This document shows, piece after piece, positions 27,365 to 59,789 of a DNA stretch of 64,000 nucleotides. Below the pieces are notes generated by a model. The model did not search any database. It saw only the letters and a list, made by a program, of their open reading frames with translations, and was not told where the DNA came from. A program made the translations under genes and the position numbers. Origin of the DNA: Sphyrna mokarran (taxonomy: Eukaryota); the NCBI GenBank assembly GCA_024679065.1, contig JAGIQG010000023.1:10416001-10480000 (forward strand). The letters are read 5' to 3'. How positions within the stretch are numbered: position 1 is the stretch's first letter; the number at the start of each line of letters is the position of its first letter.

Positions 27365-27404
27365 ATGGATTTTTCATTTCATTTTTTCGTGATCTCCTTT
27401 GCTG
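27365..27404 (+). CDS. Gene A (CD300/CMRF35/pIgR-like receptor) exon 1: signal peptide MDFSFHFFVISFA
   Basis: ATG in good Kozak context (gatATGg), 13 hydrophobic codons + 1 nt, strong donor GCTG|GTAAGT. Phase 1 matches the IgV exon at 38142. Same 40-nt length as the gene B leader. Confidence 0.75.
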
Positions 27405-27522
27405 GTAAGTAACAAACAATTAATGTGAATGTGCATAGTGAAGTGAGAATGGAGTGTGTTTGTGTAAGTTTTAAAAGAACATTAATTTGTAGCAGATTTT
27501 TCTTCTGGAATTCTTCTAGAAT

Positions 27523-38141: not shown

Positions 38142-38474
38142 TTACTTGCGCTGCATCGAATGGATGGGATATTGTAAATGGAACAGTGGGACAATCAGTC
38201 CATATCAAGTGTCAATATGACAAACATTACAGCAATTATCAAAAGTACTGGTGCAAAGGTGATGACCAGGAAGACTGTGCTATTATAGTGCGAACCAACG
38301 GCCCAAAGAAGACAAGTACTGATGGGAGAATCACCACAGTCACTGACAATAAAACAGGAGAATTTACAGTCACAATGGAACAGTTAACACAGAGCGATGA
38401 GGGCTTGTACTGGTGTGGAATTGAAAGATTGTTAGGGGATCTCCTAAGCCCCGTGGAAATTAAAATCAACAAAG
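38142..38474 (+). CDS. Gene A exon 2: Ig V-set domain, CD300/pIgR/TREM-like
   Basis: Acceptor ...cactgtacAG, donor AAAG|GTAGGA, phase 1-1. Translation (V)TCAASNGWDIVNGTVGQSVHIKCQYDKHYSNYQKYWCKGDDQEDC...DGRIT...FTVTMEQLTQSDEGLYWCGIERLLGDLLSPVEIKINK has the B/F cysteines, C-strand Trp, DxGxYWC and the extra KYWC-x7-C disulfide typical of CD300 and pIgR domain 1. Confidence 0.95.
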
Positions 38475-40246: not shown

Positions 40247-40295
40247 GTCCCAAAGCACTTCTTGCAATCTCTTCATCTGACAAGGAAATTCAAAG
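40247..40295 (+). CDS. Gene A exon 3: short stalk (G)PKALLAISSSDKEIQ(R)
   Basis: tttttaacAG acceptor, CAAAG|GTAAAT donor, 49 nt, phase 1-2, open frame. Resembles the gene B stalk exon (PK...DKE..R). Confidence 0.85.
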
Positions 40296-43775: not shown

Positions 43776-43875
43776 GCAGAAGAATTACCTGTACCATTTC
43801 ATATGGAGTGTTTTACGTTGGATTTTCTTCGCCATTCTGCTGCTTTGGGCCATTTTAGTCAAACTGAAAATGTAA
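43776..43875 (+). CDS. Gene A exon 4: transmembrane exon (R)QKNYLYHFIWSVLRWIFFAILLLWAILVKLKM*
   Basis: cttatcttcatAG acceptor, phase 2 matches the stalk exon. About 21 hydrophobic residues with one intramembrane Arg. TAA at 43873-43875, then a donor CCG|GTAAGT at 43881. Confidence 0.88.
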
Positions 43876-45319
43876 AACCGGTAAGTTATTTTGTGCATTT
43901 AGGCACAAACTATTTACAAAAGTTGTTTATAATCTGCTCATTATAAATACTTGAGGAAGGATAGCAGGATAAGAACAAAATGGCCAGCATTTTACAGCCT
44001 GCCCCACTTGATGGATCCAACTAAACTATAAAATTATGAAAGGCATAGATAGAGTTGACACAGAGTGGTAGATGTCTAGAATGTGCTGCCTGAGTTGGTG
44101 GTGAAAGCAGGTACGACAGGAGTGTTTAAGGATTTTTAGATAAGCATATGAATATGCAAGGAATAGAGGAATTTCTATAGGAGGAAACCAGAACTCAGAG
44201 GAAACCCACGTAGATATCAGGAGAACATGCAAACTTCATGTAGTCACCCAAAGCCAGAACTGAACCTGGGTCCCTGGCACTGAGGCAGTAGTGTTAACCA
44301 CTGTGCCACCATTGCCACTCTGGGATCAAGCCCAGGAAGGGGTGCAGTGACTCATCCTGTCAGTTTGGATCTTATTGGATTGAGCCCAAGATGAGATGCA
44401 AAGTCTTGTTTATCGCACAAGTGTAGGTGAGGGGGAACCATGATTTTACTTAATTTGAATTGGCTTTTCTGATTAGAAATCAAATACTGAAGGACCTCTA
44501 TCAGCTGCTTTGCTGGGGGTTTCTGAATTTGACTATGTGTGCAGATATTTCCAGGGTTTTGCAAAATATGCTGAGGAAACCAAGCAAGGGGACTTTGAGA
44601 GGGCTGAACGAGTGACAGGCTAGAAATCCTTTAAATGCTAAGATCTATCACCTGTTTTCTTGTCTATGTGAAAGCCTTTTATATATGGGTCTGTCCTGTT
44701 TTCACTGTTCTAGTGGGTCCTGTGCATCTCCAGAGTGTGTGGCCTCCTTTGAGGAGTCTTCATCCTCTTCCCGCATCACATCCAATGGGATGCTTAAAGG
44801 TTTTCTGGGAGATGGAAGACATGAATTAGAGCTGTCAAATAAAGTGTTAAATCATCAATGTGTGTGTTTTCATATTTGAGTGGCCATTGAGACCAAGTTA
44901 ACTTAAATAAGTTTTGGATGGAGTATGACTGATTGTTAATTCTGTCATTGTGTATCTGAAGACTTCCAGATCTCCAGATGATCTGACACATTGACACTCA
45001 GCTTATCGCCAGTGAGTCCTTGCCAGAATCTCAGTGTGCAGGTTGTGTGAGGGTCACGTCCAGTTTTCTGCCACTCCCTGGGATTCTGTGATAGCCTCTT
45101 CCTTTCAGGAAAATCTAAGTGATCTCTCAGTGTGAAAAATAGAATATGCGAGAACACAAAGCCATTTGTGGATCATGATGACATTGAATTAAGATGAGGG
45201 TGAGATTCAGTGATGAATGGGAAGGTGAGGAGATGTGTAGACAGAGGGGTGGGTAGGCTTGAAAAGGCAGAGTAAGGAAGGTTGGGATAAGGTGTAGATC
45301 AGGATATACTTGAATGTCA

Positions 45320-46299: not shown

Positions 46300-46859
46300 C
46301 TGTTATAACAAAGGCACAGATTTACTCTGATCCTAAAATTGTTGTGATGTTTGAAACATCCTTTGTTTCTCATTTCCAGGGTAATGGAATCTGTTACATG
46401 GCCATAACATCAACACCTACAATGGAGAATTTCAGTCAATCAAACAGCAAAGCTATCTTCACGCTGCCATTATTCACATGTGTGGTGTGGACTGCCTGAG
46501 GAATATTATGAAATAACCCTGCTATGTTCTTTCAAACCCATTCATTCTCTTTGAGGGTCACAATGACACAATGTAGGGTAAATATTGCAAATAGGTACAA
46601 GTTAACGCTACTAATTTCCTCCCACAGATGAAAGATGTGTTGGTTAGGTGGATTGGCTGTGATAAATTAACCCTAGTGTCAGGGGGATTAGCAGGGCAAA
46701 TATGAGGGGTTATGGGAACAGGGCCTGGGTGGGATTGTGGTCAGTACAGATTCTGAATGGCCTCTTTCTGCACTGTAGGAATTCTGTGATGTTATGAAAC
46801 CCTGTGGAATTTCACACAATGTACATCTGACAATATTTTCTGATTTTGTGCTTTGCCAG

Positions 46860-51145: not shown

Positions 51146-51185
51146 ATGGGTTCTATCCTTTTTCTGTCCGTTGCTTTCCTATCAG
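51146..51185 (+). CDS. Gene B (CD300/CMRF35/pIgR-like receptor) exon 1: signal peptide MGSILFLSVAFLS
   Basis: aaaacaATGg Kozak context, 40 nt hydrophobic leader, donor TCAG|GTAAGG, phase 1. Confidence 0.85.
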
Positions 51186-58972: not shown

Positions 58973-59308
58973 TTACGTACGCCTCAATAACTGGGCCAAG
59001 TGAAAAGGTTGCGACAGTGGGAGGATCAGTCCAATTCAAGTGCCGGTTTGACACATCTTACCACGATTATCAGAAATACTGGTGCAGAGGCTTTTACCGG
59101 AGGACCTGTACTGTTTTAGCACAAACCCAAAACCATGAGATGAAAAGCCACGATGGCAGAATAAAAATTCGAGCTAACAATGCAAAAGGAGAACTTATAG
59201 TTGATATGGAGCGAATAACGCTAAACGATAAGGGTTGGTACTGGTGTGGAATAGAGAGACCTCACATTCTGGATCTACTAAGTTCCACAGAACTTAAAGT
59301 AAATCAAG
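58973..59308 (+). CDS. Gene B exon 2: Ig V-set domain, CD300/pIgR-like
   Basis: cacttacAG acceptor, CAAG|GTAGGG donor, phase 1-1. Translation (V)TYASITGPSEKVATVGGSVQFKCRFDTSYHDYQKYWCRGFYRRTC...DGRIKI...DKGWYWCGIERPHILDLLSSTELKVNQ. About 45% identical to the gene A domain by hand alignment. Confidence 0.95.
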
Positions 59309-59752: not shown

Positions 59753-59789
59753 CTCCAAAGCCATTTGCAAAAGACAAGGAAAGACTAAG
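59753..59789 (+). CDS. Gene B exon 3: short stalk (A)PKPFAKDKERL(R/S)
   Basis: cattttgaatAG acceptor, CTAAG|GTAAGT donor, 37 nt, phase 1-2, paralogous to the gene A stalk. Confidence 0.85.

Follow-up and report, generated by a model that had tools for sequence, protein, structure and literature searches.

What kind of receptor ends four residues after its transmembrane (TM) segment, as one does in this hammerhead shark sequence, and through which partner could it signal? The exon in question lies in the window, by which we mean the whole 64,000 nt stretch of DNA that was analyzed. Its forward frame from position 43777 translates to QKNYLYHFIWSVLRWIFFAILLLWAILVKLKM and closes with a TAA stop codon at 43873–43875. 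The TM segment contains an Arg, Arg155 in the gene model below, set in the motif W-x-x-x-R-W (hereafter the anchor), and there is no Tyr downstream of Arg155 in the exon.

From splice sites and homology we conclude that the TM exon is the last coding exon of a predicted, intact four-exon gene for a CD300/pIgR-like (MDIR-type) receptor of 173 aa (Table 1). Leader, V, stalk and TM exons join in phases 1, 1 and 2 to give a single open frame. The leader exon has a GTAAGT donor at 27405, and a pyrimidine-rich AG acceptor lies directly 5′ of the TM exon. Splicing was deduced from the splice sites together with orthologous gene models. Three shark orthologues were found, from Mustelus (149/173 residues identical, 86%), Heterodontus (118/172, 69%) and Heptranchias (108/173, 62%). 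They are the RefSeq models XP_078098259.1, XP_067913491.1 and XP_067863719.1, which describe the same four-part protein as the hammerhead gene under purely automatic names (“CMRF35-like molecule 2/7”); the literature searched gave no description of their function. All three finish at the same residue, as KLKM or KLKI, with a short end that is tyrosine-free. Thus, the stop codon in the TM exon is not an assembly error, and the first-pass annotation, which had read a TM segment followed by only KLKM and a stop and no Tyr motif, is borne out by the reading frame, the codons and the orthologue ends. As the donor consensus at 43881 stands only 5 nt past the stop, an intron in the 3′ UTR appears likely from the sequence. 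In the paralogues the donor sits a few codons further on, inside the coding sequence.

Table 1. Features of the receptor gene and its sister gene (window positions).
Feature	Position	Strand	Evidence
Leader exon, ATG + 13 codons, phase-1 donor	27365..27404	+	tblastn with Mustelus orthologue as query, 12/13 identical
V-set Ig exon, CD300/pIgR type	38142..38474	+	Pfam V-set, E 1.7e-16
Stalk exon, 49 nt, phase 1 to 2	40247..40295	+	Splice sites, match to Mustelus orthologue
TM exon, W-x-x-x-R-W anchor + 4-residue tail + stop + 5 nt 3′ UTR	43776..43880	+	Sequence, splice sites, orthologues
Arg155 codon, CGT	43816..43818	+	Arg in 22/22 related protein segments
Stop codon, TAA	43873..43875	+	Same end residue in three shark orthologues
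Splice-donor consensus GTAAGT, 5 nt past stop	43881..43886	+	Sequence only
Sister gene, leader exon	51146..51185	+	Sequence match
Sister gene, V exon	58973..59308	+	V-set, tree
Sister gene, stalk exon	59753..59789	+	Sequence

The class of the ectodomain was read from its single V domain, for which a protein search gave five proteins from nine candidates. Its PDB sequence matches were to pIgR and CMRF35-like proteins. A structure model of the domain (pLDDT 85) was compared with known folds using Foldseek, and the best seven matches were all CD300lf (TMq 0.83–0.86, E about 1e-9 to 1e-10), followed by CD300a, TREM2, CD300c and NKp44, with TREM2 and NKp44 close behind. The V domain has four Cys (C37, C51, C59 and C105, numbered on the 173-aa model), which include a second disulfide and are invariant in 14/14 aligned rows, three of them mammalian CD300. 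The CD300-type ectodomain that had been proposed from the bare letters is therefore upheld by Pfam V-set, by the PDB sequence matches and by Foldseek. With the TM region as query, a homology search recovered the query alone (1/1 candidate), the TM exon had no match in the PDB, and nothing usable was found among the matches of an atlas search.

Directly downstream lies a sister gene whose neutral TM exon and ITIM tail fall just outside the window, at C805:10480456 and C805:10488284. Its tail carries the ITIMs VTYATV and TEYTTV, and the V domains of the two neighbors are 45–47% identical. We placed both in a tree of 70 V domains (19 of 61 genomic ones and those of 26 selected proteins) over 105 columns, in which the deep forks are unresolved. 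The receptor V domain grouped with those of the Arg receptors of Mustelus, Heterodontus, Heptranchias and Narcine (98/96), and the sister with ITIM receptors of Pristis, Stegostoma and skate type (99/96). Together with a Callorhinchus-linked pair these two clades form one clade of 12 rows (98/97), whose inner order is unresolved. Mammalian CD300 V domains form a separate clade (100/98) in the same 105-column tree with its unresolved deep forks. Judging from these sequence groupings, we conclude that the receptor and its sister are a putative activating/inhibitory pair older than the split of sharks and rays. Each appears here as a single copy, unlike the expanded groups nearby. A two-domain receptor with a neutral TM segment directly follows the ITIM sister (G000:C805:10503661-10514664, + strand); a Stegostoma protein model (P0016) joins the sister and this two-domain gene, probably through an annotation fusion.

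In the 860 kb around the window on C805 we counted 61 V exons. Nine TM exons are of the anchor class, seven of them intact with Arg, one with Cys in its place and one with a stop codon. A further nine are neutral and none of these carries W-x-x-x-R-W; the neutral exons were chosen by eye from 34 candidates and by homology, and the TM census is perhaps incomplete. The 860 kb contain seven instances of W-x-x-[LIVFM]-R-W with a hydrophobic 12-mer after it, compared to a mean of 0.25 and a maximum of 2 in 20 Markov simulations, which shows that the anchor is not a chance motif. All seven occurrences sit downstream of a V exon on the same strand, and CpG codons encode the Arg in 7/7 intact genomic copies.

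Several other features of the cluster deserve mention. The Cys-for-Arg copy (TGT; G000:C805:9965821-9965946, − strand, L101 region) is an otherwise open paralogous anchor exon and offers a natural control for the role of the Arg. The copy at G000:C805:10123066-10123212 (+ strand, L081) has a stop codon, in frame, where the Trp following the Arg would be, with a truncated V exon upstream at 10116869, and is likely a pseudogene. On the − strand, nearly identical V exons spaced at ∼2.5 kb form two arrays, of 8 and 13 members, at G000:C805:10054000-10076000 and 10160000-10193000. In most of these V exons the Cys expected behind the KYW motif is absent, the sequence reading KYWS or KFWS, and no same-strand TM exon was found near either array. 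They could be parts of secreted receptors or of very long ones with many domains, or represent recent duplications. Finally, multi-domain genes appear in duplicate in G000:C805:10589000-10670000 (+ strand), where the two anchor exons, at 10606684 and 10636562, show 100% identity along 146 nt. Either this segment was duplicated recently, or the assembly contains it twice.

In order to follow the anchor into other species we carried out a profile search, in which 3543 proteins reached E ≤ 0.001; the best 150 of the 3543 were examined, 28 of them with species names. Among these listed matches 12 of 149 new proteins carry the anchor, in 14 segments scoring at least 8 bits. In the 180 proteins collected overall, 22 segments in 20 proteins reached at least 8 bits and all 22 read W-x-x-x-R-W. 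Thirteen named species carry the anchor among the matches listed: the sharks Mustelus, Heterodontus, Heptranchias, Hemiscyllium and Carcharodon, the rays and skates Narcine, Hemitrygon, Leucoraja, Mobula, Rhinoraja and Hypanus, and the bony fishes Latimeria and Acipenser. The V domain of one carrier (P0054) groups with a Callorhinchus V domain (100/100). W(−4), R and W(+1) stand in 23/23 distinct anchors, whereas positions −3 to −1 are only 35–57% conserved. This invariance count is partly circular, as Arg-bearing exons went into the profile, though the Cys copy still scored 35.5 bits with it. F(+4) and L(+7) are conserved in 78% and 91%, respectively, and share the helix face of the Arg. The retention of W(−4), F(+4) and L(+7) on this face suggests a helix–helix contact. 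At a comparable position the four teleost relatives named among the matches listed carry either Arg or Lys, and none of them has the full pair of Trp.

The presence of the anchor in cartilaginous fish, coelacanth and sturgeon implies, if a single origin is assumed, that it likely predates the split between cartilaginous and bony fishes. The first-pass annotation had left open an ancestral or a lineage-specific signaling combination; the carriers among rays, coelacanth and sturgeon speak for the former and against the latter.

The receptor has the hallmarks of receptors coupled to Fc-gamma or CD3-zeta, namely a TM Arg and a short tail without a Tyr motif. GPVI, the activating LILRs and NKp46 carry such a TM Arg. 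In the best hydrophobic window of 21 residues Arg155 occupies position 7, and the first cytoplasmic Lys follows 15 residues later. The genome contains two matches to Pfam TCR_zetazeta, of which L113 (C446:11045007, FCER1G-like) is nearest to FcR-gamma and L112 (G000:C335:17364945, CD247-like) nearest to CD3-zeta; both TM exons have kept the Cys and the Asp. In the shark adaptors the Asp occupies position 6 and the first basic residue on the cytoplasmic side comes 16 residues after it, and the depths of receptor Arg and adaptor Asp therefore agree within one residue. Feng et al. (2006; PMC1440944) described that partners of Fc-gamma with a basic residue use an Arg in the N-terminal segment (position 3 in Fc-alpha-RI, with the Fc-gamma Asp at 6), and that DAP12 partners have their basic residue at positions 7–12. 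The earlier statement that a TM Arg marks Fc-gamma partners is in agreement with the preference of Arg for Fc-gamma in mammals (PMC1440944). Its companion, that this Arg is specially N-proximal, found no support: position 7 is deeper than position 3 of Fc-alpha-RI, falls on the edge of the DAP12 range, and matches the depth of the Lys or Glu of mammalian CD300 (positions 6–9, 16–19 residues from the edge, in 4/4 proteins examined). Thus, it is the Arg side chain that favors Fc-gamma or zeta, while depth separates no adaptors.

Based on these sequence features, we consider the receptor to be probably activating, with its Arg pairing with the Asp pair of FcR-gamma or CD3-zeta. Arg155 would meet the Asp pair of the adaptor dimer and the complex would assemble in the ER through this Arg-Asp-Asp site, so that surface expression of the receptor would depend on the adaptor. 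Ligand binding would then lead to ITAM/Syk signaling via the adaptor, and the ITIM sister would oppose the activating receptor. A complex prediction with the receptor helix and two FcR-gamma helices scored 0.06, the mark being 0.34, and was weighed neither for nor against the pairing. In catfish, the Lys-bearing IpLITR 2.6b binds FcR-gamma and not DAP12, and changing its Lys to Ala or Arg has no effect (PMC4810170), which shows that the choice of adaptor in fish does not necessarily follow from the charged residue.

An activating receptor could also use its Arg to pair with DAP12 or DAP10, in the way of the CD300b Lys at the same depth. This is rather unlikely in our judgment. The depth register is shared with the mammalian CD300 Lys, position 7 falls inside the DAP12 range, and NKG2D–DAP10 and Ly49–DAP12 do use Arg (PMC1440944). 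Moreover, mouse CD300b uses both DAP12 and DAP10 (PMC7247439), and in fish, including bowfin, NITRs and DICPs have been classed as activating by their TM Arg and connected with Dap12 (bioRxiv 2021.06.11.448072). However, human type I DAP12 partners all have Lys, a Lys-to-Arg swap lowers KIR–DAP12 assembly to 15%, and the Arg-using DAP partners just named are type II proteins (PMC1440944). In most relatives, furthermore, the Arg lies 18–22 residues from the cytoplasmic edge (15/22 segments), which fits an Fc-gamma site in the outer third of the membrane. Pfam searches of the genome for DAP10 and ITAM found nothing, but the ITAM search also missed the FcR-gamma- and CD3-zeta-like adaptors that are present, and the two outcomes therefore say nothing on the presence of DAP12 or DAP10.

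We regard it as quite unlikely that W-x-x-x-R-W makes no salt bridge with an adaptor at all. It would then serve as an interface anchor, an ER quality-control signal or a receptor–receptor contact, with an adaptor bound by other residues, or the protein would be a non-signaling decoy or co-receptor for the ITIM sister. An Arg flanked by Trp near the outer edge could snorkel, the basic residue of catfish IpLITR 2.6b is dispensable as described above, human CD300c E191V retains FcR-gamma binding (PMC12447643), and the cluster contains its Cys-for-Arg variant. Against such a role speak the Arg found in all 22 segments, whether of shark, coelacanth or sturgeon, its retention in CpG codons, and the nine neutral TM exons of the cluster that do without the motif. 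No swap to Lys was seen in the motif class, and a purely physical anchor should tolerate one.

That the short tail is an artefact or a minor isoform, the mRNA reaching an ITIM tail via the 43881 donor or another TM exon, is highly improbable, since against a strong donor beside an A-run and an acceptor-like sequence near 46380, behind which a different frame encodes an ITIM-like hexamer, stand the three shark orthologues ending at the same residue, a ray and another relative ending within a residue or two, a longer Narcine isoform whose 26 extra residues contain no Tyr, the 20 ITIM-like hexamers in 15,018 downstream codons, which make a single one a chance event, and ITIM-tail queries that matched the sister gene alone in the 40 kb downstream. 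A frameshift into an ITIM through the exon-like stretch near 46380 was ruled out by the orthologue ends and the ITIM-tail queries.

If the Arg does couple the receptor to Fc-gamma or zeta, Arg-based recruitment of these adaptors in the receptor family dates to the jawed-vertebrate ancestor, and the gene would allow one to ask cleanly whether Arg already went with Fc-gamma and Lys with DAP12 in that ancestor, as the mammalian rule has it. A presumed activating/inhibitory pair that has stayed stable while the cluster around it changes fast is in addition a good handle on a conserved ligand. More tentatively, and with considerable doubt, W-x-x-x-R-W could be the original activating Fc-gamma/zeta-binding module of the CD300/pIgR-like family of jawed vertebrates, with Lys or Glu at the same depth replacing the Arg later in mammalian CD300s and some teleost relatives, and with the gene and its ITIM neighbor maintained as a one-to-one pair since before the shark/ray split. 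The literature searched, to which most subscription papers were closed, gave no account of the motif or of the receptor gene, and the available part of PMC6795676 contains nothing on this receptor family. The invariant anchor across jawed fishes and the stable pair may be unreported.

The system itself is not of a new kind, as both the skate MDIRs and CD300-like receptors that couple to adaptors have been described. Short-tailed mammalian CD300s use DAP12, FcR-gamma or DAP10, and CD300h and mouse CD300f bind FcR-gamma (PMC7247439), as does CD300c through Glu191 (PMC12447643). The combination of a CD300 ectodomain with FcR-gamma is therefore already known in mammals. With the activating mammalian members (CD300b, c, d, e and h) the shark receptor shares the single V domain, the second disulfide, the short tail and a charged TM residue at the same depth, and its place beside an ITIM receptor resembles the CD300a/CD300c pair (PMC12447643). 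It differs in having Arg between Trp, whereas 4/4 mammalian proteins examined have Lys or Glu. Receptors of the Fc-alpha-RI type resemble it in their type I helix, an Arg in the outer half and the lack of a tail motif, and differ in the position of the Arg (3, compared to 7 in the shark). Their ectodomains are of the C2-type class and they belong to the leukocyte receptor complex. According to a 2006 abstract, MDIR1 is said to have a positively charged TM residue. The MDIRs of skate and zebrafish are multigene families of activating and inhibitory members related to CD300, TREM and pIgR (PMC3031540), the accessions of MDIR2–4 being ABC86796, ABC86797 and ABC86799; a little-skate query returned 29 matches, none of them named MDIR. 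Like the skate MDIRs, the hammerhead genes form a large cluster in a cartilaginous fish, here with 61 V exons and both Arg-anchor and neutral TM exons. What sets the hammerhead receptor apart from the MDIRs is that it has a single V domain and occurs in one copy, and that its orthologues have been kept stably in sharks and rays.
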